Shown: positions 13,137 to 64,000 of the stretch, piece after piece
Position numbering within the stretch: position 1 is the stretch's first letter
Layout of the letters: each line of letters begins with the position of its first letter
NCBI GenBank assembly: GCA_964468315.1
Contig: CAYXTA010000002.1
Location: forward strand, 319-64,318
Direction of reading: 5' to 3'
Origin: an uncultured Candidatus Saccharibacteria bacterium
GTDB taxonomy: Bacteria > Patescibacteriota > Minisyncoccia > Phycocordibacterales > UBA9973
DNA: 64,000 nucleotides
Translations under genes and position numbers: made by a program
The notes under the pieces: model-generated
Told to the model about the DNA's origin: nothing
Database searches by the model: none
Seen by the model: only the letters and a program-made list of their open reading frames with translations

Positions 13137-13940
13137 TTATATTTCTATTTGTACAAATTTTAATTCACTAATATTTACAGGGCTCACAAGTAATGCTTTT
13201 TGGAAAGAATCTCTAGGATCAGAAATAATGTCTTCCACAACTCCAAATATATAATTATGTATTCCAGGCAAATCCACTTCTGCACCTTTTGCAATTACAA
13301 AATCTCTTGGCATAGCGAGTTCAAAATTTCCTCCACCACGACCTACAGCTTGTACAAAAGTATCACGTCCAGAAACAACAACTTCGGTTTTTTCTCCAGA
13401 ACCTGAATACAAAACAACTTTTGATGTTTTAGAATATACTTCTGAAATTCTACCAATAGGAATATTACCCAAAGCAAAAACACGAGAACCGACTTTCACA
13501 CCATCACTCTCCCCTAAATCAATAATTAAACTTCCATACAAAGATTGATTTGTTTGTGACAAAATCCCAGCTAAAATAAATTTACTATTTTCATTTTTTC
13601 TTCCTAAAATTTCTTTTAATTTAATATTTTCATTTACCACAGAAGAATAATTTGCTCTGTCAGCTTCACTTTGTAATATTTGATTTTTTAAATTTTCATT
13701 TTCTTTCAATAAAGATTTTTTAGAAACAAAAAAAGATTTTGTTGAATATATACTATTTCCTAGAGAATTACCTAAAACAACAATAGGCCTAAAAACAAAA
13801 TGACTTGCTTTAGAAAGTCCTGTAAAAATTAAATTTCTACTTAAAAACAATAAAGCTACAATTAAAAATATTATTAAATAATTTAAAAACTTTCTTCTTT
13901 TTAATTTTTTATCTAGGAGGTAGCTCATCTTGATTACCAA
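13137..13940 (-). CDS. mreC: Rod-shape-determining protein MreC.
   Basis: 267 aa with an N-terminal TM, a coiled-coil segment, then the Gly-rich beta domains typical of MreC ('DLGESDGVKVGSRV', 'GRGGGNFEL'). It sits immediately downstream of mreB. Confidence 0.75.
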   Translation of the reverse strand: MVIKMSYLLDKKLKRRKFLNYLIIFLIVALLFLSRNLIFTGLSKASHFVFRPIVVLGNSLGNSIYSTKSFFVSKKSLLKENENLKNQILQSEADRANYSSVVNENIKLKEILGRKNENSKFILAGILSQTNQSLYGSLIIDLGESDGVKVGSRVFALGNIPIGRISEVYSKTSKVVLYSGSGEKTEVVVSGRDTFVQAVGRGGGNFELAMPRDFVIAKGAEVDLPGIHNYIFGVVEDIISDPRDSFQKALLVSPVNISELKFVQIEI

Positions 13941-14955
13941 TTAAAACTTCTTTATAAGATTCAATATCGTCCAATATAATACCTGTACCACGAGCTACAG
14001 CTGAAAGTGGATCTTCAACTACATAAACAGGTATCTTTAAAGTATGTTGCAATAAATCATCTAACCCATGAAGTAATGCTCCTCCACCTGAAAGTACAAT
14101 ACCTCCACGCATAATATCAGAAAGGATTTCTGGCGGGGTAGTTTCTAATACATCTTTTACTCCGTCCACAAGCCCTGCCACAGAAAGAGCGATAGCTTCA
14201 CGAATATCAGAATCAGTAACGACTACTTCACGAGGTAATCCAGTCAAAATATCTCTTCCACGAATTGCACTCTCCATGTATTCACCCGATGTAGCTGATC
14301 CTATAGCTATCTTCACACTCTCTGCAGTTTTCTCACCAATTAAAATTTTAAATTCATCACGCATATAAGTAATTATGTCATTATTCAATCTATCTCCTGC
14401 AATTTTCAAATTTCTTGATTTTACAATTCCACCTAAAGATATAACTGCGACATCAGTAGTACCTCCACCAATATCTACAATCATAGAACCAACTGCATCT
14501 TTTACAGGAAGACGAATACCGATAGCTGCAGCCATAGGCTCTTCTACTAGATACACTTCTCTTGCACCTGCAGACTTTGCTGCATCATACACAGCACGAG
14601 TTTCTACGTTTGTAGTTCCAGAAGGAACACCGATAACAACTCTTGGACGCACAAATTTCTTTACCATTTTGTCAGCTTTATTTATGAGATATGAAAGCAT
14701 CTCTTCTGTAACTTCAAAATCGGAAATAACTCCATCCACAAGAGGACGGACAGCTTTTATGTGTCCAGGTGTACGGCCAAGCATTTGTTTAGCTTGTGCT
14801 CCTACGGCAAGAATTTGATTTGTCTTCACGTTTACAGCAACAACAGAAGGCTCATTTATCACAATACCTTGCCCTTTCAAATACACCAGCGTATTTGCTG
14901 TGCCAAGATCGATACCAATATCATTTGAAAATAATTTATAAAATTTTTTAAACAT
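13909..14955 (-). CDS. mreB: Actin-like rod-shape protein MreB.
   Basis: 348 aa. 'IGIDLGTANTLVY' and the phosphate/adenosine motifs are present ('DIGGGTTDVAVIS', 'LSGGGALL'). Confidence 0.9.
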   Translation of the reverse strand: MFKKFYKLFSNDIGIDLGTANTLVYLKGQGIVINEPSVVAVNVKTNQILAVGAQAKQMLGRTPGHIKAVRPLVDGVISDFEVTEEMLSYLINKADKMVKKFVRPRVVIGVPSGTTNVETRAVYDAAKSAGAREVYLVEEPMAAAIGIRLPVKDAVGSMIVDIGGGTTDVAVISLGGIVKSRNLKIAGDRLNNDIITYMRDEFKILIGEKTAESVKIAIGSATSGEYMESAIRGRDILTGLPREVVVTDSDIREAIALSVAGLVDGVKDVLETTPPEILSDIMRGGIVLSGGGALLHGLDDLLQHTLKIPVYVVEDPLSAVARGTGIILDDIESYKEVLIGNQDELPPR

Positions 14956-14960
14956 AATTA

Positions 14961-16235
14961 CTATTCGTTACCTGTCATTTTTAATAATTCCAACAATTCT
15001 GTAAGAGAAACAACTTTTCCTTTTTCCTCTGTTCTTTTTTTAATTTCAATACCACCTTCTTTTAGGCTTCTTTCAGAAACAACAGCTCTATAAGGAATTC
15101 CTAATAAATCAGAATCTGCAAATTTTTCTCCTGCAAGCATTCCACTTCTATCATCAAAGATAACTTCAATACCAGCTTTTACTAAACTTTCATACACATT
15201 ATCAGCTTCTTTCAAGACAGCTTCACTTTCACCTAAAGAAAGTAATTGAATTTTAAAAGGAGCAATACTTTCAGGCCATATAATACCCTTATCGTCTGAA
15301 AGTACTTCTACTACTGTACCCATAAGACGAGTCAGGCCAATACCATAAGAACCCATTATTACTAAATTTTCTTCATTGTTTTCATTTTTGAATTTCAAAT
15401 CAAAAGGAGCTGAGAATTTTGTACCCAATGAAAAAATATTACCGACTTCTATAGATTTCCTTTCAACTAATTTTTCTTTTTCTAAATTTAAATCTTTTAA
15501 AACTTCATCTGTAAATACTTCTTGATTTACAGCAACAGAAGTTTCTTCGTTTATATATATAGTATCTTCTCCAGCAGAAGTAACTGTTTGAAATTCATGA
15601 GAAAATTTTGAAAAAGTTCCACCTGAAGCAAAAGTAATATATGTAAGATGTCCAATTCCAACTTTTTGGAAAATATTTTTATAAGCAATTTTAGCTTTTT
15701 CGTAAAATTCATTATGCTCATTTTCATCTTTAGAAAAAGAATATAATGCTTTCCAATAAAACTCTCTACCTCTTAAAATGCCGGATTTACTTCTAGTTTC
15801 ATTTCTGAAAATATTTTTAAAATCATAAACATATACAGGTAAATCTTTATATGAATTTACATATTGTTTTAAAATATTTGAGTGAGCTTCTTCGTTTGTA
15901 AAAGACAAGCCGACTTCTCCTCCGTTTTTTAATTTTGTTTTAAACCAATTATCTACAATTTCATCATCCCATCTATTAGTTTTTTCCCAAACTTCTTTTG
16001 ATTGCATTACAGAAGTCTTCATCTCAATACCACCGATCATGTCCATTTCATCTCGTACTATTTGTTCTATCTTTTTTAAAACTCTTACACCTAAAGGCAA
16101 AAAACTGTAAACTCCCGCCATTTCTTTATGTATAAAACCACCACGGATCAAAAGTTCAGCGTTTTTTGAAACTTCGTCTGCTGGAGCTTCTTTCCTTGTT
16201 TTAGTAAAAAGTTTTGTTTGTCTCATATATCCCAT
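14961..16235 (-). CDS. proS: Proline--tRNA ligase, short form lacking the INS editing domain.
   Basis: 424 aa. The N-terminus 'MRQTKLFTKTRKEAPADEVSKNAELLIRGGFI' is classic bacterial ProRS, followed by a class II core and an anticodon-binding domain. Confidence 0.85.
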   Translation of the reverse strand: MGYMRQTKLFTKTRKEAPADEVSKNAELLIRGGFIHKEMAGVYSFLPLGVRVLKKIEQIVRDEMDMIGGIEMKTSVMQSKEVWEKTNRWDDEIVDNWFKTKLKNGGEVGLSFTNEEAHSNILKQYVNSYKDLPVYVYDFKNIFRNETRSKSGILRGREFYWKALYSFSKDENEHNEFYEKAKIAYKNIFQKVGIGHLTYITFASGGTFSKFSHEFQTVTSAGEDTIYINEETSVAVNQEVFTDEVLKDLNLEKEKLVERKSIEVGNIFSLGTKFSAPFDLKFKNENNEENLVIMGSYGIGLTRLMGTVVEVLSDDKGIIWPESIAPFKIQLLSLGESEAVLKEADNVYESLVKAGIEVIFDDRSGMLAGEKFADSDLLGIPYRAVVSERSLKEGGIEIKKRTEEKGKVVSLTELLELLKMTGNE

Positions 16236-54249: not shown

Positions 54250-56238
54250 ATGAATTCTAAAAAAGGTATACATCATAATAAGAAAGAAAAAACAGCAGGG
54301 GGTACTATTTCTATAAACTCTAAAGGTACAGGATATGTCACTTTAGGCGAGGTAAAGAAAGATCGTAATAAAAACGAAGATGTAGAGATAGATTTCACTG
54401 ATTTAAATACTGCTTTACATGGAGACGAAGTAGAAATAAGTATCAATCCTAAAAAAATAAAAGGAAGAGTTACAGGAAAAGTTACAAAAATTATTTCTAG
54501 AGCAAAAAATGGTTTTGTTGGTATTCTAGAAAAAGAAAATGATAAGTTTTTCTTAAAACCTGATGATACTAGAATGTATACTGATATTTTGATACCGATA
54601 GAAAATTTAAACAATGCAAAAAATGGAGAAAAGATTTTCGTAGAAATAACTTCTTGGAAAGATTCATCGAAATCCCCTATTGGAAAAGTTTTGAAAGTTA
54701 TGGGTCTTCCTGGAGAAAATAATACAGAAATGTATTCTATCGCAATAGAAAGAGGTTTCGTGGCAGAATTCCCTGATAATGTAGAAAACGAAGCACATGC
54801 AATAAAAACTGCTGGTATTGGGGAGAAAGATTTTAAAGACAGACGTGATTTCAGAAATATTTTAACTTTTACAATAGACCCAGATGATGCAAAAGATTTC
54901 GACGATGCAATATCATTCAGAAAAATAAATCACAAAGATTTTGGTGATGTTTTTGAAATTGGCGTACACATAGCTGATGTTTCTCATTATTTAAAAATAG
55001 GAAGTGAAATAGATAAAGAAGCGCGCAACAGAGGAACTTCTGTGTATCTTGTGGATCGTACAATACCAATGCTTCCTGAAACTCTTTCCAACGACTTGTG
55101 TTCCCTTGTACCAAATCAAGACAGACTTTGTATGTCTGCTGTTTTTTTGATTGATAAAAATGCAAAAGTAAAAGACAAATGGTTCGGAAGAACAATAATT
55201 CATTCTAAATATCGTTTTACTTATGCTACAGCAGAAAAAGCAATTCATGAAAAAAATGAAATACTACACAAAGAACTTTCTACTTTAAATGATTTAGCGA
55301 AAAAGCTTACAAAAGAAAGATTTGCAAATGGAGCAATATCTCTCGAGCAAGAAGAAGTGAAATTTGTCTTAGATAAAAATTCAGTACCAATAAAAGTGAT
55401 TCTCAAGGAGCGTGGTGATTCAAATAAATTAATAGAAGAATTTATGCTTCTTGCAAACAGACAAGTCGCGGAAACTATCTCAACCGACGCAAAAGGTAAA
55501 AAATTAAAAATTCCACAAAGTGGTGTATTCGTCTACAGAATACACGATTTGCCAAATAAAGAAAAAATGGCTGACCTAGCAATACTTTTAAAAAGTCTCG
55601 GTTATAAAGTGAGTTTAAAAAATGGTATCATACCTTCTTTTGAATTAAATGAAATATTAAAAAAATTAGAAGGAAAAAACGAAAAAGAAACAATCCAAAA
55701 ATCTGTAATACGTTCTATGGCAAAAGCTATTTACTCTACAAAAAACATAGGCCATTACGGACTTGCATTTGAATATTATACACACTTCACTTCCCCAATA
55801 CGTAGATATCCAGATGTAATGGTACACAGACTTCTTGAAGATTATGTAAAAAATAAAAAGATAGATCAGAACAAATGGGTAGAATTTGAAAAAATTTCTA
55901 TTAAATCTTCAGAGCAAGAAAAACGTGCAGCTGATGCAGAGCGTGCTTCTATAAAATACAAACAAGTAGAATATATGAGTAAAAGAATTGGTGAAGAATT
56001 TATCGGCATCATAAGTGGAGTAACAAATTGGGGTATTTATGTAGAAGAAATGGAAACAAAATGCGAAGGACTTATACGCGTCAGTGATTTGAATGACGAT
56101 TATTATGTCTTTGATGAAAGAAAAGTAGAACTCGCAGGACAAAAAAATAAAAAGAAATACAAACTCGGAGATAAATTAAAAATAAAAGTTAAAAGTGTAG
56201 ATGCAATCAAAAAAACAATTGATTATGTTTTATTATGA
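54250..56238 (+). CDS. rnr: Ribonuclease R / RNase II family 3'-5' exoribonuclease.
   Basis: 662 aa. N-terminal cold-shock/OB region, RNB catalytic domain ('DPDDAKDFDDAISF', 'VYLVDRTIPMLPE'), and a C-terminal S1 domain. Confidence 0.85.
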   Translation: MNSKKGIHHNKKEKTAGGTISINSKGTGYVTLGEVKKDRNKNEDVEIDFTDLNTALHGDEVEISINPKKIKGRVTGKVTKIISRAKNGFVGILEKENDKFFLKPDDTRMYTDILIPIENLNNAKNGEKIFVEITSWKDSSKSPIGKVLKVMGLPGENNTEMYSIAIERGFVAEFPDNVENEAHAIKTAGIGEKDFKDRRDFRNILTFTIDPDDAKDFDDAISFRKINHKDFGDVFEIGVHIADVSHYLKIGSEIDKEARNRGTSVYLVDRTIPMLPETLSNDLCSLVPNQDRLCMSAVFLIDKNAKVKDKWFGRTIIHSKYRFTYATAEKAIHEKNEILHKELSTLNDLAKKLTKERFANGAISLEQEEVKFVLDKNSVPIKVILKERGDSNKLIEEFMLLANRQVAETISTDAKGKKLKIPQSGVFVYRIHDLPNKEKMADLAILLKSLGYKVSLKNGIIPSFELNEILKKLEGKNEKETIQKSVIRSMAKAIYSTKNIGHYGLAFEYYTHFTSPIRRYPDVMVHRLLEDYVKNKKIDQNKWVEFEKISIKSSEQEKRAADAERASIKYKQVEYMSKRIGEEFIGIISGVTNWGIYVEEMETKCEGLIRVSDLNDDYYVFDERKVELAGQKNKKKYKLGDKLKIKVKSVDAIKKTIDYVLL

Positions 56239-58142
56239 TAAAAAATATTCATCCTAAAATAAAATATATTTTTTGGGTAATATTTTCTATTACTATAGGA
56301 ATTTTTTTTGCTTTTGCTATCACAAAAACTGTTGGTTATGAAAAAATAAAAAACACAAATACTGGCAAAGAAAATATGGAAGCACAAGTAATACAAAGTG
56401 TTTCAGAAAAAAATACAGAAGATCAAAATTTTTATTTTCTTAAAAACCAAGAGAAGAAACCGAATGTAAAAGCTGAAGCTTATTTCGTAGGAGATGTTGA
56501 AAACGGAAAAATGATAATTGAGAAAAATTCAAATAACAAATTCCCTATTGCTTCTGTTTCAAAATTAATGACAGCGACTGTAGCTGAAGAGAATCTAAAC
56601 CAAGATGAAACAACTACAATAACACAAAAAGTTTTAAATACTTATGGACAAAATGGGGATTTTAAATTAAATGAAAAAATAAGATTGGGAGATTTAATTT
56701 ACCCAATGCTTTTAGAATCTAGTAACGATGCAGCAGAAGCTATCGCATCACATAACAACAGAAATTCATTTATAAAAATGATGAATGAGAAAGCTCAAAG
56801 TCTAGGACTCATATCTACTACTTTTGAAGACCCAAGTGGACTTTCCGTAAACAACCAATCCACAGCATTTGAACTTTTCAAACTTACAAAATATATCAAA
56901 GAACACAGAAAAGCTATTTTTGAAAAAACAATAAAACAAAGTTATATAACAAAAAAACACAATTGGTTTAGTACAAATCAATTCGTTAGAGAAAAAGAAT
57001 ATGAAGGTGGAAAAAGTGGTTATACTGACCCTGCAATGCAGACGGCTGTATCTACTTTCTCTATCCCTTTGGGTGAAAATGGAGTAAGACATATTGCTAT
57101 CACAGTGCTTCGTAGTCCTGATAGAAAAAAAGATGTTGAAAATATATTAACTTATCTAAAGAAAAATGTTTATTTTGGAAAAGAATCTGATGCAGACCTC
57201 GCTTGGGTAAAACAAAAAGAAAATACTGTCGAAGAATTGGAACCTGATTTCGTAAATCTCGCTTTCGTCGGAGACATAATGCTTGATCGTGGAGTCAAAA
57301 GTTCTGTGCGTAAAAACTTCGGAGGAGATTATTCAAAGCTTTTTGATAATTTAGATATTCTTAAAAAATCAGATATAGCATTTGCAAACTTAGAAGGCCC
57401 TGCTTCTGATCAGGGAAAAGACTTACGCAATCTGTATTCTTTCAGAATGGATACTTCTACAATACCAGCACTTAAGGGTGCCGGATTTGATGTCCTCTCT
57501 GTTGCTAATAACCATGTCGGTGATTGGGGTCGTACTGCTTATGCAGATACTCTTGAAAGACTTAAAGAAAATGAAATACTATATACTGGAGGAGGTATAA
57601 ATAGTGGCGAAGCAGAAAAACCAACCATTGTAGAAAAATATGGAATGAAAATAGGATACTTGGCATTCTCTGACAAAGGACCAAATGCTATGGCTGTGGA
57701 ATCAAACAAAGCAGGACTTTTACTCGCAAGCAATCCACGCTTTGATGAAATTATAAAAAATGCTTCAAGCCAAGTGGATTATCTTATCGTCTCATTCCAC
57801 TTTGGTGAAGAATATCAAAAAATACATAACGAAAGACAAACTTATCTTGCTCACAAAGCTATCGATGATGGAGCAAAAATAATAATTGGAGCGCACCCAC
57901 ATGTTATGCAAGATTTTGAAGTGTATAAAAATAGTTTCATCGCCTACTCACTCGGCAACTTTGTTTTTGATCAAAGATTTTCTGCAGATACAATGCAAGG
58001 AATGCTTCTTGAAATAAAACTTCATAAAAATGGTCTTATGGAAACAACAAAAAATATTGTTAAACTAAATTCATCTTTCCAGCCTGATCAAATAATCAAA
58101 GGCAAACCTGAAAGAGTAAAATTTCAAGAAACAAAAATATAA
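56235..58142 (+). CDS. Fusion of a D-alanyl-D-alanine carboxypeptidase (peptidase S11) with a CapA/PGA-capsule-synthesis (metallophosphatase-like) domain.
   Basis: 635 aa with an N-terminal TM. S11 motifs SxxK 'ASVSKLMTA', SxN 'LESSNDAA' and KTG-like 'GKSGYT'. The C-terminal half has CapA-family motifs ('FVGDIMLDRG', 'VANNHVGDWG', 'GAHPHVMQ', 'YSLGNFVFDQ'). Confidence 0.75.
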   Translation: MIKNIHPKIKYIFWVIFSITIGIFFAFAITKTVGYEKIKNTNTGKENMEAQVIQSVSEKNTEDQNFYFLKNQEKKPNVKAEAYFVGDVENGKMIIEKNSNNKFPIASVSKLMTATVAEENLNQDETTTITQKVLNTYGQNGDFKLNEKIRLGDLIYPMLLESSNDAAEAIASHNNRNSFIKMMNEKAQSLGLISTTFEDPSGLSVNNQSTAFELFKLTKYIKEHRKAIFEKTIKQSYITKKHNWFSTNQFVREKEYEGGKSGYTDPAMQTAVSTFSIPLGENGVRHIAITVLRSPDRKKDVENILTYLKKNVYFGKESDADLAWVKQKENTVEELEPDFVNLAFVGDIMLDRGVKSSVRKNFGGDYSKLFDNLDILKKSDIAFANLEGPASDQGKDLRNLYSFRMDTSTIPALKGAGFDVLSVANNHVGDWGRTAYADTLERLKENEILYTGGGINSGEAEKPTIVEKYGMKIGYLAFSDKGPNAMAVESNKAGLLLASNPRFDEIIKNASSQVDYLIVSFHFGEEYQKIHNERQTYLAHKAIDDGAKIIIGAHPHVMQDFEVYKNSFIAYSLGNFVFDQRFSADTMQGMLLEIKLHKNGLMETTKNIVKLNSSFQPDQIIKGKPERVKFQETKI

Positions 58143-58233
58143 AAAAATCCCCCTGCATTTTCATACAGAGGGAATTTCAATTCGCACAAAGTCCAAAGGG
58201 TCAAAAGAGACCGAAGTGAACAAAAATAAAGTA

Positions 58234-58914
58234 CTACTTGCGAACACCCGCGAACCACCAGTAGTCACCCCAGTCACCGTCATAACGGCGGACACTCAGG
58301 TCCCGCTCGTCAACATCGCGGCGGAAAACGGCATAACACCACTTTCCATCTCCATCTTTCCATTGAGTTCCGTTAGGATGCTCATCGGCAAAAGCAGGGT
58401 CAGCTTCGTTTACTGCGGCTTGTGAATACGGATCGGCAGGTTTTAATCCACGCAATGCATATTCTTTTTCCAGGTCATCCATACTTATCTGGCGTCCGAT
58501 TTTAAAGAAGATAACTTCTGTTTCTTCGGTTTCGCCTTTGGGTATTGTTTTCAGCACGCTGTCGTCCACATACTGGTTTCTGCCAGTAGCTTTCAGAGCT
58601 TCTTTGGCAGAACGGTTGCGGTTTACTTTTACAACGCGGATAATCATATTCGAGATTGCTTCAACGCGTTTGCGGATTACAGCAAATAGCTCACCTGCAA
58701 GTTCGGGGATGCCCAGAACTTGTTGTATAAGATTGCTGGGAAGCTCGGCTTTGTGCTTCTGCAATTTTGCGTTTAACAACTCTTTTAACTTACCGATTTG
58801 ACCCTCGGTAATGGGTTCTGATGGGGTTATGGTCTTTTCCATAGCGTCATAGATTTGATTTGATTGCGTCCCGCAATAGAGGGCTAGACAGTCGTAGTCA
58901 TAGCTAGGAAACAT
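58234..58914 (-). CDS. Hypothetical protein encoded in a compositionally foreign GC-rich island.
   Basis: 226 aa from the ATG at 58914 (the ORF track starts one codon earlier at a TTG). Local GC is markedly higher than the flanks. The C-terminus is Trp/Asp/Gly-rich ('WKDGDGKWCYAVFRR...YDGDWGDYWWFAG'). No family recognised. Confidence 0.55.
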   Translation of the reverse strand: MFPSYDYDCLALYCGTQSNQIYDAMEKTITPSEPITEGQIGKLKELLNAKLQKHKAELPSNLIQQVLGIPELAGELFAVIRKRVEAISNMIIRVVKVNRNRSAKEALKATGRNQYVDDSVLKTIPKGETEETEVIFFKIGRQISMDDLEKEYALRGLKPADPYSQAAVNEADPAFADEHPNGTQWKDGDGKWCYAVFRRDVDERDLSVRRYDGDWGDYWWFAGVRK

Positions 58915-59042
58915 CAAATGATTTAATGTCTTTTAGCTATGACTACAAGTAGTACTTATTGGGAAAGAACCTTAATTACTAGGATTAAGTATAGCATAGA
59001 TGGTGGTAAAAGTCAATGATAAATACTCTTGTAAATTAAGCC

Positions 59043-61379
59043 TTATTTTGCAATAGCTGCAGCTTCTTCGAATTTCACTGAGAGGAGTTTAGAACCTCCA
59101 TCAGAGCCAACGGTAACGCCGTAGAGGACACCAGCACGAGACATAGTCTCACGATTGTGAGTGACGACGATGAGCTGTGAATGGTGCGAGAGTTTTTCGA
59201 GCATATCTCCATATTTACGAGAATTCGCTTCGTCGAGCGCTGCGTCTGTCTCGTCGAGGACGAGGAATGGCGGAGGGTTCACTTGTGACACAGCAAAAAG
59301 AAGTGCGATAGATGTGAGTGATCTTTCCCCTCCTGAAAGAGCTTGAAGTTCTTTCACTTTTTTATGTGGAAGAGAAACACTGATTTCAATACCATGTTCA
59401 AAGACAATAGCTTCTTCGTCTATTTCTTCTTCATCTTTCTTGCCTCTTTTTTGTTCTGCGACAACAGAAAGAAATGCAGAACCTCCCCCGAACATAAGAG
59501 CAAAGAATTCTTGGAATTCTTTATTGATTTTTGTAACACCAAGTTTAAATTCAGTATCTATCTTTTCTTTAAGATCGAGCATTAGCTTACGAAGTGATTC
59601 TATGCTCATAGAAAGATCTTCCATTTCTTTTGCAAGGAATGCATCTCTATCTCTCACCTCTTCAAATTCTTTTAATACTTCAGTTGTACCTCCAAGTCCA
59701 GCATCTTCGAGTTTTATTTTAATGCGTTCGATTTTTCTACGACGTTCTTCTTGATTTTCTCTTGATTCATCGATATTTTCTATTTGAAAATTCTTATATG
59801 ACAAAATATCTGCACCGAGAAATATTGAACCTTCTCGTATTTGATCTTCAAAGCTAGTCATAAGGCGAGCGTAACTTTCTTCTTTTATAGCAATAGTATT
59901 TAAAGACGAAATGAGTTCTTGTTTTCTAACAGCAAAATCAAATTTGTTTTTTTGTATTTCTTGAAAAGAAAAATTATCTTTTTGTATTTCATTTTTCAAA
60001 TTTTCTAATGCTTGAGCAAACTTCCCTTCTTCATCTTCTATCTTACTCATCTCTGCGAGAATTTCTGTTTGAGTATTTTTCAAATTTTCTAGATTATTTT
60101 GATTCTCAAAAGCATCAGTTATGTGTTCTTGCGAATGGTCTGGCCGAGCGGAGTGAGGAGAACCGAAGACCTGAGCAGGAGCACTAACTGATGCTGTTCT
60201 AATAAAGCGATCCAAGATATCTTTTATCTTTCCTAACATCGGTGCAATGTTTTCTAAAACATCTATGTACATAGCTTCTTCTATATATTCATTTAACTCT
60301 TTATAGAAAGAATCAAAATCTTCTTTTGAAATACTTACTTTGTCGTTTGTATGTTCTTTTACTTGAGTTTCATTATGTACAACTGGTGCGCGATTGCTTT
60401 CCATTTCTATCATAGCTTCTATGCGACCAAGTTTACGTGAAAGTTCACTTTTTATATTTCTTATTTCTGATATTTTCTTTTCAAGATCTCGTATTTCTAT
60501 ATTCTTTAAATTTTCAGTATTTGGTGTTGTATTTTCTATTCCTGATATTTTTCCAGAAATAACTTCAATTTCATTTTGAATACGCTTTTTATCTTCTAAA
60601 AAAGAAGTATTTTGATTTTCTAAATAAAGCGCTTCTCTTTTTAAATATTCACGAGAAAGATCAAGAAGTTCTATCTTTAGTTCTTTTGCTTTTTCTAATT
60701 TCTCTACTTGTTTACGCAAAAAATTAAGATGTGGAGCTATTTCTTTACGAAGAAGTGAAACTTCTTTCATATTGTTTGTAGTACGGTCAAGTTTACGCTC
60801 ACTTTCTTTTATTTTGTATTGATATATCTTGAGTCCGAGTGCATCTTCGATCATTTCTCTTCTGTCTTTCGCTGAAGCATTAAGTATTCTATCTGCTTCT
60901 CCTTGAGAAATAATATGGTGACCAGAAGAACCAATGTTCACAGATGAAAGCAAGGTCATAATATCTTTCAAACGAACTTCTGATCCATTGAGAGAATATT
61001 TATTTAAACCATCAGAAAAAACTTCACGAGAAACAGTAATGTGTTCGTAATTTAAATTTACTTTATCACCATTTTCATTTTCTAATTTAAAAACCTTATC
61101 AGTATTGTTGAAACAAATAGAAACAGAAGCACGAGAAGATTTTGGTAGTGTTTTTGAGCCTTTGAAAATAAGATCAAGCCCTGCTTTCCCACGCATTGAT
61201 TTGATGGATTGTTCACCAAGTACGAAACGTATCGCTTCTACGACATTAGACTTTCCAGATCCATTAGGACCAACAACAGATGTGATAGAACTTTGAAACT
61301 CTAAAGAAGTTTTTTTTGCGAAAGATTTGAAACCATTTATTTCTAAAGATTTAAGTCGCATAGAAATTAATCGAGCCAA
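59043..61379 (-). CDS. smc: Chromosome segregation SMC-family ATPase, short form.
   Basis: 778 aa. N-terminal Walker A 'GPNGSGKSN', long coiled-coil regions, C-terminal signature 'LSGGERSLTSIALLFAV' and Walker B 'FLVLDETDAALD'. It is about 400 aa shorter than canonical SMC. It contains one in-frame GC-rich element (60127..60166). Confidence 0.8.
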   Translation of the reverse strand: MARLISMRLKSLEINGFKSFAKKTSLEFQSSITSVVGPNGSGKSNVVEAIRFVLGEQSIKSMRGKAGLDLIFKGSKTLPKSSRASVSICFNNTDKVFKLENENGDKVNLNYEHITVSREVFSDGLNKYSLNGSEVRLKDIMTLLSSVNIGSSGHHIISQGEADRILNASAKDRREMIEDALGLKIYQYKIKESERKLDRTTNNMKEVSLLRKEIAPHLNFLRKQVEKLEKAKELKIELLDLSREYLKREALYLENQNTSFLEDKKRIQNEIEVISGKISGIENTTPNTENLKNIEIRDLEKKISEIRNIKSELSRKLGRIEAMIEMESNRAPVVHNETQVKEHTNDKVSISKEDFDSFYKELNEYIEEAMYIDVLENIAPMLGKIKDILDRFIRTASVSAPAQVFGSPHSARPDHSQEHITDAFENQNNLENLKNTQTEILAEMSKIEDEEGKFAQALENLKNEIQKDNFSFQEIQKNKFDFAVRKQELISSLNTIAIKEESYARLMTSFEDQIREGSIFLGADILSYKNFQIENIDESRENQEERRRKIERIKIKLEDAGLGGTTEVLKEFEEVRDRDAFLAKEMEDLSMSIESLRKLMLDLKEKIDTEFKLGVTKINKEFQEFFALMFGGGSAFLSVVAEQKRGKKDEEEIDEEAIVFEHGIEISVSLPHKKVKELQALSGGERSLTSIALLFAVSQVNPPPFLVLDETDAALDEANSRKYGDMLEKLSHHSQLIVVTHNRETMSRAGVLYGVTVGSDGGSKLLSVKFEEAAAIAK
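60127..60166 (+). repeat. GC-rich repeat element copy 5 (subtype B), in frame inside smc.
   Basis: tggtctggccgagcggagtgaggagaaccgaagacctgag, encoding ...FGSPHSARPDHSQ.... Confidence 0.6.
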
Positions 61380-62062
61380 TTTTTTACTTTTAAAGCACTT
61401 TGAGCAGCAGATTGTTCAGCTTCTTGTTTAGACTTACCTTTTCCTTCAGCAATCAAATCTCCACCAAATAAAATACCGACAGTAAAATGTTTATCATGAT
61501 CAGGTCCTGATTCGGATAAAACTTTGTATGCAGGAGTAAGACTAAAAAATTCTTGAGATTTTTCTTGTACGAGACTTTTTGCGTCACGCCATAATTTCTT
61601 TGTAACTATTTCTTCTGTATAAGGCAAAAGCGTTTCTGTGATAAATTTCTCTGCAATCTCATAACCAGAGTCCATATACAAAGCTCCAACAAATGCTTCA
61701 TAAGTATTCGCGAGAATGTATTGGCGAGCCTTACCTGTATCTTTTGATTCACCACGTGACAAAAGTAAATATTCATTCATTCCTATTTTAGATGCAATTT
61801 CAGAAATAATAATTGCATTTACGAGTGCACTGCGAAGAGCAGTAAGCTCTCCTTCTGTATATGTATTATATTTTTTATATAAATAATCTGTAACGACAAG
61901 CTCAAGCACTGCATCACCCAAAAACTCTAAGCGTTCATTGTGAGTCATTCCTGTATTTGGATTTTCATTTATATATGAACGATGTATAAATGCTTGCATT
62001 AAAAGATTTTTGTCTTTAAACGATACACCTATTTTTTTTTCGAAAATAGAAAAATCAACCAT
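61367..62062 (-). CDS. rnc: Ribonuclease III.
   Basis: 231 aa. The RNase III signature 'ERLEFLGDAVLEL' is present, with a C-terminal dsRBD. Confidence 0.9.
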   Translation of the reverse strand: MVDFSIFEKKIGVSFKDKNLLMQAFIHRSYINENPNTGMTHNERLEFLGDAVLELVVTDYLYKKYNTYTEGELTALRSALVNAIIISEIASKIGMNEYLLLSRGESKDTGKARQYILANTYEAFVGALYMDSGYEIAEKFITETLLPYTEEIVTKKLWRDAKSLVQEKSQEFFSLTPAYKVLSESGPDHDKHFTVGILFGGDLIAEGKGKSKQEAEQSAAQSALKVKNWLD

Positions 62063-62070
62063 AATTATTT

Positions 62071-62970
62071 TTATTTATTTATAATCTCAACTGCTTTTGT
62101 AATAAGAGGAATTATATCGTTATACATTTTCAAATCTGGAATTTCAGAAAGAGAAAACCATCTTGCTCCATCAAGACCACCTGATTCCGCAAGCATAAGT
62201 TCTTTGTATTCACTTTCAGCCAAGAAATATGTAACCTTTTTTAAAATTCTTCCCTTTTCTGGATGCTTTGCGACATATTCATTTTCACCAAGTTTTGCTT
62301 TTATCTCAACATTTAAATTTATCTCTTCTTTCATTATTCTCTTTGTAGCTTCTTCGTCACTCTCGCCTTCTTCTACACCACCTTTTGAAAGGGTCCAGTA
62401 TCCAAATACATCATGCACAAATGCAAAATATAAATTATTTTCTTTTCTAGCATAAACAATAGCTCCGCCTTTTCTTTCAATTGGAAGTTTTGTAATGTCT
62501 ATCGGTTCATCATCTTTGAATTTCTTTTTACTAACTTCGTCTTTACCAGGCTCACCGATTTCTTTATAAACTGCACCGAGAACTCCGTTAATAAATTTAC
62601 CAGAATTCTCTCCACCGAAAGTTTTTGCGAGTTCTATAGATTCATTTATCGCAACCTTTGGAGGTACTTGTGTACGATCACCAAAAAGAAGCTCATTGAG
62701 CCCTATTCTTAAAATATTTCTATCTACTATTGAGATCTTGTCTATTGGCCACTCAGGAGCAGCTTTTTCTATGATCTCATCTAAAACGTTACGATTTTTT
62801 AAAATTTGTTCTGTAAGATTTAAAACAAAAACATCGTCTTCAAGACCTGGAGCGAATTCACTTAAATTACGAGCAACTGCTTCTTTTATATCAGAAGTTT
62901 TTGCACCGTTAAAATCCCACTCAAAAAGTGTCTGAAGAACTATTGATCTGGAAAGGTGCCTGTTAGCCAT
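62071..62970 (-). CDS. nusB: NusB-family RNA-binding domain fused to a C-terminal NUDIX hydrolase domain.
   Basis: 299 aa. Residues 1-140 are NusB-like ('RSIVLQTLFEWDF', 'DRNILRIGLNELLF'). Residues about 160-299 carry a Nudix box 'GGVEEGESDEEATKRIMKEEINL' (GX5EX7REUXEEXGU). Confidence 0.75.
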   Translation of the reverse strand: MANRHLSRSIVLQTLFEWDFNGAKTSDIKEAVARNLSEFAPGLEDDVFVLNLTEQILKNRNVLDEIIEKAAPEWPIDKISIVDRNILRIGLNELLFGDRTQVPPKVAINESIELAKTFGGENSGKFINGVLGAVYKEIGEPGKDEVSKKKFKDDEPIDITKLPIERKGGAIVYARKENNLYFAFVHDVFGYWTLSKGGVEEGESDEEATKRIMKEEINLNVEIKAKLGENEYVAKHPEKGRILKKVTYFLAESEYKELMLAESGGLDGARWFSLSEIPDLKMYNDIIPLITKAVEIINK

Positions 62971-63239: not shown

Positions 63240-63314
63240 AATGAAACCATTCTAGCATTACTCTTAATAAAAAGCAAACTAGCAAAACAAGCCAAATATG
63301 CTATTATTTAACCT

Positions 63315-64000
63315 ATGAACAATACTGAAAAATTACACAATATAAGACATAGTTTGGCACACCTTTTAGCTGCAGCTATTTTAGAAATTTATCCAGATAC
63401 AAAAAACACTATTGGCCCAGCTATCGATGATGGTTTTTATTATGATTTTGAATTCTCCTCCCCTGTTTCTGAAAAAGAATTACCAAAAATAGAGAAAAAA
63501 ATGAAAGAACTTTTAAAAGCTTGGAATAAATTTGAAAGTGAAGAAAAAACTCCAGAACAAGCAAAAGAATATTTCAAAAACAATGAATACAAAATAGAAT
63601 TAATAAACGATATCGTTGAAAAAGGAGAAAAAATAACTTTCTACACTTCTGGTACCTTTACAGATCTTTGTCGTGGAGGACATACAGAAAATCCTGTAAA
63701 AGATATATCTGCTGATGCCTTTACACTCGACCGTGTAGCTGGTGCATACTGGCGTGGAGATGAAAAGAATAAAATGCTTACTCGTATATATGGCCTCGCA
63801 TTTGAAACAAAAGAAGAACTCGAAGCATATTTAAATCAAAGAGAAGAAGCTAGAAAAAGAGATCATAAAAAAATAGGAAAAGAGCTTGGACTCTTTGTTT
63901 TCTCTGAACTTGTAGGTGCAGGGCTCCCCCTTTGGACACCAAAAGGTACAATCATCCGTGAACTTCTTAACGACTATGTTTGGAGTTTAAGAAAACCAAA
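63315..64000 (+). CDS. thrS: Threonine--tRNA ligase, N-terminal part; it runs off the window end and no TGS domain is evident.
   Basis: Starts directly with the second-additional-domain motif 'HSLAHLLAAA', then 'RDHKKIGKELGLF', which is classic ThrRS. Confidence 0.85.
   Translation, partial: MNNTEKLHNIRHSLAHLLAAAILEIYPDTKNTIGPAIDDGFYYDFEFSSPVSEKELPKIEKKMKELLKAWNKFESEEKTPEQAKEYFKNNEYKIELINDIVEKGEKITFYTSGTFTDLCRGGHTENPVKDISADAFTLDRVAGAYWRGDEKNKMLTRIYGLAFETKEELEAYLNQREEARKRDHKKIGKELGLFVFSELVGAGLPLWTPKGTIIRELLNDYVWSLRKP

Follow-up and report, generated by a model that had tools for sequence, protein, structure and literature searches.

What does a Nudix domain do at the end of a transcription antitermination factor? 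The question is raised by nusB::nudix, a complete open reading frame (ORF) of 299 residues plus stop codon at positions 62071..62970 on the minus strand of a 64-kb stretch of contig CAYXTA010000002.1 from an uncultured, ultra-small bacterium of the Parcubacteria group (64,000 nucleotides, referred to in what follows as the window), in which a NusB domain is joined through a flexible linker to a C-terminal domain of the Nudix fold. NusB is an antitermination factor that, together with ribosomal protein S10 (NusE), binds BoxA RNA on the transcribing polymerase, and to our knowledge it is a universal bacterial transcription factor of very constant, single-domain form. A reading made from the sequence alone (the sequence-only reading) had taken the C-terminal half for an intact Nudix hydrolase and had proposed that its attachment to an RNA-binding protein, next to rnc, points to a coupled RNA 5′-end processing or decapping activity. 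In what follows we establish that the fusion is real and that the protein lacks one of three catalytic Glu residues of the Nudix box, and we argue from the pattern of conservation across the family that what is retained in the added domain is probably the binding of a ligand.

The two halves do belong to one protein, as had been claimed. The gene starts with ATG and continues in one frame without a single internal stop, the identical 299-residue protein is encoded by 8 contigs from independent samples, and both the NusB and the NUDIX Pfam domains are present in 120 of the 120 best database homologs (74-100% identity). Because of the identical protein on independent contigs and the presence of both domains in all of these homologs the fusion is genuine and not an assembly artefact, and the stop or frameshift between two genes that might have come to light was not found. 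An AlphaFold2 model calculated from a 55-sequence alignment (mean predicted local distance difference test score, pLDDT, 84; predicted template modeling score, pTM, 0.48) consists of a seven-helix N-terminal domain, a disordered stretch and an α/β C-terminal domain and, so far as its summary values go (the pTM of 0.48 and the disordered linker), suggests no fixed interface between the NusB and Nudix domains.

The N-terminal domain (residues 1-138; 62557..62970, minus strand) is a bona fide NusB. PF01029 is matched at residues 7-136 with E 6.5e-33 and 114 bits (cutoff 23.1), and TIGR01951, the NCBIfam nusB equivalog, reaches 120.1 bits (curated cutoff 88.35) in a match that spans residues 4-137 and model positions 2-130 of 131. 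By sequence this half of the protein matches NusB entries of the PDB (1tzt, E 3e-19), Foldseek places the domain on NusB structures 1tzv and 3r2d (3r2d_B) with target template modeling (TM) scores of 0.85-0.86 and root-mean-square deviations of 2.0-3.5, and the seven helices of this all-helical part, found within residues 4-138, are predicted with block-mean pLDDT values of 73-95. As in the NusB proteins of Thermotoga maritima (1TZT), Aquifex aeolicus (3R2C/3R2D) and E. coli, to which the match is full-length, the Arg-rich N-terminal motif (R4, R8) is conserved, along with Q13 and the C-terminal core of the domain, VPPKVAINE-IELAK...KF-NGVLG. Unlike any of these, the fusion carries 160 additional C-terminal residues that comprise the linker and the Nudix domain, and none of the PDB-matched NusB chains, which are 139-156 residues long, has such an extension.

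The C-terminal domain (residues 164-299; 62074..62481, minus strand) can be assigned, from sequence and fold comparisons, to the part of the Nudix superfamily that contains the diadenosine tetraphosphate (Ap4A) hydrolases, NUDT2 and RppH. PF00293 is matched at residues 190-286 (E 1.1e-12, 48.5 bits against a cutoff of 21.1), the best PDB sequence matches are the Ndx1 diadenosine hexaphosphate (Ap6A) hydrolase, CT771, the Aquifex Ap4A hydrolase and human NUDT2 (BLASTP E 1e-8 for the latter), and the closest folds in Foldseek include the Aquifex enzyme 3i7u and Ndx1 1vc8 (target TM 0.85), with the Nudix domain of NrtR, 3gz8, also among the matches. Block means of pLDDT are 88-94 for most of the stretch 161-299 and drop to 67 and 79 in two blocks. 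In common with the Ap4A/Ap6A hydrolases that it resembles most in sequence and fold (NUDT2 3U53, Aquifex aq_158 3I7U, T. thermophilus Ndx1 1VC8 and Chlamydia CT771) the domain has a W-x3-KG motif, the phosphate-binding Lys/Tyr/Lys set and an adenine-stacking aromatic pair (PMC4734340). Specifically, K196, Y232, K244 and Y283 align to K42, Y82, K89 and F128 of NUDT2, which are P1-phosphate-binding and adenine-stacking residues of Ap4A hydrolases (PMC4734340), so that a predicted Lys/Tyr/Lys phosphate clamp and purine-stacking aromatic pair appear to be intact. The differences from these enzymes are that the Glu corresponding to NUDT2 E58 is Ile, that the domain is covalently joined to NusB and that any hydrolytic activity would be putative.

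The relation to RppH is of a more general kind. Both share the Nudix fold and membership in a group related to the hydrolases of diadenosine polyphosphates, Ap(n)A, and among human Nudix proteins it is NUDT2 that has been reported as most similar to RppH, with both enzymes removing 5′ phosphates from RNA and accepting 5′-triphosphorylated RNA (PPP-RNA) (PMC8616924). Unlike RppH, however, the domain has Ile at the position equivalent to RppH E53 (PMC6061791) and scores far below the RppH models: the top NCBIfam Nudix match is indeed an RppH model, NF001936 (PRK00714 family), but at 27.3 bits against a cutoff of 118 and in a partial match confined to residues 176-227, with RppH models overall at 14-27 bits against cutoffs of 116-259. 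NudC, the nicotinamide adenine dinucleotide (NAD)-cap decapping enzyme and NADH pyrophosphatase, is likewise remote, with 18.8 bits against a cutoff of 158 for model NF001299 and distant fold matches at target TM 0.35-0.38.

The Nudix box itself is degenerate. The string that had been quoted as intact, GGVEEGESDEEATKRIMKEEINL, is present at residues 197-219 (62314..62382, minus strand) but departs from the consensus GX5EX7REUXEEXGU at two places, as is evident when it is written out as G197-x5-E203-x7-R211-I212-M213-K214-E215-E216-I217-N218-L219: the metal-binding, catalytic Glu of the RE pair is replaced by Ile212 (codon ATA, 62335..62337, minus strand) and the Gly of xGU by Asn218. The sequence-only reading had named absence of catalytic Glu residues as evidence against it, and one of the three is missing. 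In HMMER and BLASTP alignments I212 lies opposite Ndx1 E46 and human NUDT2 E58, and that the latter is the RE Glu is confirmed by PDB entries 4ick, 4ijx and 1xsa, which differ from wild type 3u53 by the change of RETQEE to RATQEE; the first two are NUDT2 E58A entries and the third is a construct for nuclear magnetic resonance with the same change.

Removal of this Glu is commonly used to inactivate enzymes of the family. The RppH mutant E53A has no activity on triphosphorylated RNA and fails to complement an rppH deletion (PMC6061791), PPP-RNA is not dephosphorylated by NUDT2 E58A (PMC8616924), and NUDT9 with the box RILGEE, that is with E-to-I and an adjacent F-to-L replacement, is inactive (PMC6461439). 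The same double change in TRPM2 of Nematostella (nvTRPM2) leaves ∼1% of kcat with KM within twofold, and human TRPM2, which has both replacements in its box RILRQE, binds ADP-ribose and does not hydrolyze it (PMC6461439). The box studied here, RIMKEE, is altered at the Glu position as in the inactive NUDT9 RILGEE, and the Nudix domain of this strain more likely binds nucleotides or RNA 5′ ends than cleaves them, being probably weakly catalytic or inactive. Because the RE Glu is missing and the scores lie far under the RppH and NudC cutoffs, the domain should not, on present comparisons, be labeled as RppH, NudC or an active Nudix hydrolase.

In order to place this single sequence in its family we have compared the fates of catalytic and binding residues in a large number of fusions. 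When 1.84 billion cluster representatives were scanned with HMMER, 155 proteins were obtained at E ≤ 1e-30; among the best 150 of these, 58 have at least 270 residues and nearly all are full-length two-domain proteins, extending to ∼32% identity. The three catalytic Glu are all kept in just 10 of 58 diverse representatives (50% clustering), with the RE Glu kept in 14, a single one of the three in 25 and none in 7. When 289 distinct full-length fusions are pooled the complete set is found in 138 and the RE Glu in 169 (58%), the position being otherwise occupied by R, K, I, V or A, and the corresponding numbers for 46 full-length fusion genes from GTDB species-representative genomes are 21 and 23. 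By comparison, K196, Y232, K244 and Y283 are each conserved in 269-285 of the 289 fusions (93-99%) and are kept in 95-99% of the 120 sequences that have no RE Glu. On an average-linkage (unweighted pair group method with arithmetic mean, UPGMA) tree from which the box columns were excluded, presence or absence of the RE Glu changes at least 39 times, as against 3-5 changes for each of W192, K196, W271 and Y283. The catalytic Glu are among the least conserved positions of the domain, and because they vary while substrate-binding residues are nearly invariant hydrolysis is probably not the function that has been conserved.

Rates of divergence are in keeping with this. Outside the box the ratio of Nudix to NusB divergence is 1.2-1.4 where all three Glu are kept; where the RE Glu is missing it is 1.3-1.5, apart from one small bin of 39 close pairs (ratio 0.76). 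The Nudix domain therefore seems to remain under similar constraint after the Glu has been lost, with no sign of relaxed evolution, as expected if its conserved job is binding and not hydrolysis. The starting point was probably a normal, active enzyme, since the most distant fusions in the set (L055 and L076, 38-43% identity) both have a canonical box.

The reading that we favor, and that we hold with middling confidence, is that the protein is a standard NusB with a tethered Nudix module that binds nucleotides or RNA 5′ ends and that, in this strain, would hydrolyze slowly or not at all. Within the Parcubacteria group nusB has, in a large subgroup, gained a C-terminal domain of the Ap4A-hydrolase/NUDT2/RppH-like type, hung on a flexible linker of ∼25 residues. 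From homology and from the conserved position of the gene we infer that the NusB part would work as an ordinary NusB, with S10 and BoxA in the antitermination complex, and the Nudix part would serve mainly as a tethered binder of a purine nucleoside polyphosphate, for which the subfamily suggests Ap(n)A, ATP or a 5′-PPP or Np4-capped RNA end as candidate ligands. Given that NusB, to which the domain is tethered, travels with nascent RNA, we favor as ligand the 5′ end, triphosphorylated or Np4-capped, of the transcript that bears BoxA, or else Ap4A or another free dinucleoside polyphosphate. Across the family hydrolysis would be optional, and it may occur where the box is canonical.

Several considerations weigh against this interpretation. 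The equivalences of residues on which it depends come from sequence alignment and the AlphaFold2 model, the UPGMA tree is a rough one, and the sequences sampled lean towards the subfamily of the protein at hand: the profile search with the diverse alignment returned mostly members of this subfamily, so that taxonomic breadth is provided mainly by the scan of GTDB loci described below. E203, E215 and E216 are retained, which would allow for residual catalysis or catalysis with an alternative base, and active Nudix enzymes with noncanonical boxes exist, nvTRPM2 with AEFGEE being an example (PMC6461439). About half of the family has a canonical box, and in those lineages hydrolysis may matter. 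Finally, Ile is found in the clade of the protein itself and Glu in relatives that are ∼5% diverged (box excluded), so that the E-to-I change is recent in this lineage and, for this strain alone, may reflect an early stage of decay.

The closest functional analogy, one of principle only, would be the NUDT9-H domain of vertebrate TRPM2, an inactive, ligand-binding Nudix domain with box RILRQE in which the RE position also reads RI (PMC6461439). There the ligand-binding domain has been retained and is essential, catalysis is dispensable for the main function and, as in the fusion family, canonical and vestigial boxes are mixed across lineages (PMC6461439). Unlike the fusion, TRPM2 NUDT9-H belongs to the ADP-ribose-specific NUDT9 subfamily, is the partner domain of an ion channel and is eukaryotic. 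A second likeness is to SuhB of the E. coli rRNA antitermination complex, a protein with an enzyme fold that is recruited to a complex of Nus factors and whose catalytic activity is dispensable there. SuhB differs in having the inositol monophosphatase fold and in being a separate polypeptide, and a role of this sort for a Nudix domain would be by analogy only.

A more specific version of the binding interpretation, which we advance tentatively and think rather unlikely to be correct as it stands, would have the Nudix domain act, tethered to the Nus antitermination complex, as a non- or slowly hydrolyzing reader, whether of the 5′-PPP/Np4-capped end of nascent RNA or of the alarmone Ap4A. If it is the 5′ end that is read, NusB would anchor BoxA as well as the 5′ end of the transcript at the polymerase, and the rRNA leader would be looped for cotranscriptional folding and processing by RNase III; if it is Ap4A, antitermination would respond to levels of dinucleoside polyphosphates. 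A bacterial Nudix pseudo-enzyme would then be a regulatory module of the transcription machinery. More generally, an RppH/NUDT2-like domain appears to have been added to NusB across a whole radiation of ultra-small, uncultivated bacteria and, should it engage RNA 5′ ends or Ap4A, it would link the antitermination complex physically to 5′-end status or to alarmone signaling. The family also offers a natural experiment, in that close relatives, some pairs of them ∼94% identical, differ in whether the catalytic site is canonical or eroded, and this contrast would allow a clean test of whether catalysis or binding is the conserved job of the Nudix domain.

The first alternative to be weighed is close to what the sequence-only reading had proposed, namely that the protein is an active RNA 5′-pyrophosphohydrolase or decapping enzyme of the RppH or NudC kind, delivered by NusB to nascent RNA and working with RNase III in 5′-end processing. 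We consider it doubtful, even though the choice of subgroup was well founded: the nearest relatives are Ap4A/Ap6A hydrolases and NUDT2, a subgroup with enzymes that act on the 5′ phosphates of RNA (PMC8616924), the best NCBIfam Nudix match is to RppH, three Glu of the box remain (E203, E215, E216) and, with roughly half of the family canonical down to its most distant members, the ancestral fusion was probably active. Set against this are the replacement by I212 of a Glu whose loss inactivates RppH, NUDT2 and NUDT9 (PMC6061791, PMC8616924, PMC6461439), the ease with which the catalytic Glu vary between close relatives while binding residues do not, and the scores of 27 bits where RppH calls for 118 and of 19 where NudC calls for 158. 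Catalytic competence is thus in doubt, and it would not be safe to annotate the domain as an enzyme active in decapping; database entries for the fusion proteins, of which there are a very large number, are at present named only "transcription antitermination factor NusB".

The remaining support for a processing enzyme was the proximity of rnc. The gene for RNase III (61367..62062, minus strand; Ribonuclease_3 and dsrm domains) does lie directly downstream of the fusion with a gap of 8 nt, in a minus-strand order that begins with rpmF (ribosomal protein L32, 63015..63239, PF01783 E 3.9e-16), located 44 nt upstream in the same apparent operon, and that continues after rnc, with an overlap of 13 nt, into an smc-like gene of 778 codons (59043..61379, SMC_N E 2e-59). 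To test the argument from adjacency we have retrieved 80 loci from GTDB species-representative genomes with the family profile and annotated them with hidden Markov models (HMMs). Approximately 52 of the 80 have the fusion, under the labels Paceibacterota, Nomurabacteria, Kaiserbacteria, Zambryskibacteria, Niyogibacteria, Ryanbacteria and Komeilibacteria, and the remaining 28 have a short, unfused nusB of 140-192 residues, with labels that include Yanofskybacteria, Moranbacteria, Azambacteria, Wildermuthbacteria and Staskawiczbacteria; the two labels checked in the NCBI taxonomy, Nomurabacteria and Yanofskybacteria, both fall within the Parcubacteria group. Fused and unfused loci alike have rpmF upstream (in most of those of the 80 whose sequence extends to that side of nusB) and rnc downstream, usually followed by smc. 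From these shared neighbors the fused gene appears to be the positional ortholog of nusB, and rpmF-nusB-rnc(-smc) would be the ancestral order in Parcubacteria. The proximity of rnc thus seems to be older than the fusion and is, therefore, uninformative as to the role of the Nudix domain: the adjacency that had been pointed out is real, and its value as a functional clue is not.

The same survey bears on how widespread the fusion is, a point on which a phylogenetic check had been called for. Homologs from metagenome-assembled genomes of the Parcubacteria group top every search and, together with the distribution over loci, indicate that NusB has acquired an uncharacterized accessory domain that is real and widespread in this group. 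In the literature, searched for NusB together with Nudix and together with the candidate phyla radiation (CPR) or Patescibacteria, no description of the fusion was found, in line with the earlier statement that no characterized example was known, and a large review of the Nudix clan does not mention NusB. No case of two nusB loci from one assembly occurs among the 80 loci retrieved, and a six-frame search of the window with the family HMMs gave no second NusB or Nudix better than E = 0.7. An Rfam scan of the window returned only two tRNAs, both far from the nusB locus, and a scan for promoters and terminators gave no more sites than were found in shuffled controls.

Between the two domains lies a Lys/Glu-rich flexible linker (residues 139-163; 62482..62556, minus strand), in which residues 141-156 have pLDDT below 50 and are predicted to be disordered. 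It contains the motif D154-E155-P156-x-D158, of which E155 and P156 rank with the best conserved positions of residues 138-299 when the 58 diverse representatives are compared. This DEPxD motif is well conserved across diverse members of the family though it lies inside a segment predicted to be disordered, and may serve as a short linear motif for docking.

The linker is of some importance for the second alternative, according to which the fusion is incidental and the domain is a housekeeping hydrolase of Ap4A or other nucleotide polyphosphates that shares with nusB nothing but expression and that decays wherever it is redundant. Repeated loss of the catalytic site would be accounted for in this way, streamlining and gene fusions are common in these small genomes (the same window has a Peptidase_S11-PGA_cap protein), and the AlphaFold2 model, with its pTM of 0.48 and disordered linker, suggests no fixed interface between the domains. 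A decaying enzyme should, however, lose its binding residues, gain stops or be deleted, and lineages without the Glu keep the binding residues in 95-99% of sequences and show no increase in rate. A conserved motif in the linker is likewise not what is expected from a chance joining of two genes, nor is the fact that no unfused ortholog of the Nudix domain was found, with zero Nudix matches in the 28 unfused nusB genes or within ∼4 kb of them in HMM searches. On balance we think that an incidental fusion is unlikely.

Short relatives that appear as "Nudix-only" or "NusB-only" proteins do exist in databases. Most of them are on contigs of less than 3 kb or have no start codon, and look like fragments. 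Two candidates for stand-alone Nudix orthologs, P0217 and P0344 (the latter on a 56-kb contig), were rejected as such, each being the fused gene with a single in-frame TAA: the rpmF-nusB-nudix-rnc arrangement is retained, both ORFs are in one frame with the conserved linker readable across the stop, and the codon at which gene callers restart, the "start" of the Nudix ORF, is the TTG of Leu162. At locus L087 (542-1459) the stop replaces the conserved Tyr135, and at locus L086 (3503-4420) it is within the linker, on a contig where smc is split as well. We take such split copies to be interrupted fusions, through nonsense mutation or sequencing error, and not independent genes. The possibility that sequencing or assembly errors have merged adjacent nusB and Nudix genes, to which the few two-ORF entries such as P0217 and P0344 might seem to point, is thus extremely improbable in light of the identical ORF on 8 independent contigs, of uninterrupted fusions in the 120 best matches and in 46 species-representative genomes, and of split cases that differ from the fusion by one TAA in an otherwise continuous frame and linker.

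A number of minor observations were made on genes nearby. A separate Nudix protein of 172 residues, with a fully canonical box (GKIKKGETPEQCMERELPEESGV) and a MutT/MTH1-like look, is encoded in longer contigs ∼2.5 kb beyond the high end of the window, after thrS (L001, 6767-7285), and at least one Nudix gene in this genome thus has the full catalytic motif. The gene thrS itself is divergent from rpmF, on the plus strand at 63312-64000, and runs off the end of the window; in longer contigs it encodes 584 residues with a weak tRNA_SAD match only, and may be an N-terminally reduced threonyl-tRNA synthetase. Both halves of the SMC_N head are found in the smc-like protein and no SMC_hinge match at E ≤ 0.001; most of the complete relatives at the same position have ∼730-830 residues, and the gene may encode a shortened SMC, poor in hinge sequence, of a kind that is typical of these genomes.

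The slot just downstream of smc (58143-59042 in the window) is variable between strains. In the window it is occupied by an ORF of 227 residues (58234-58917, minus strand) with no Pfam or PHROG match, and in the L001 contig, which is 99.7% identical to the window across rpmF-nusB-rnc-smc, the same slot (13386-15973) has an unrelated ORF of 214 residues together with bAvd and a reverse transcriptase, with the look of a diversity-generating retroelement. Beyond the slot, on the plus strand at 56235-58142, lies the gene of the Peptidase_S11-PGA_cap protein noted above, whose 635 residues combine a D-Ala-D-Ala carboxypeptidase domain (residues 71-275) with PGA_cap (342-580); in a relative (L005, 4680-6308) PGA_cap is found with VanY instead.

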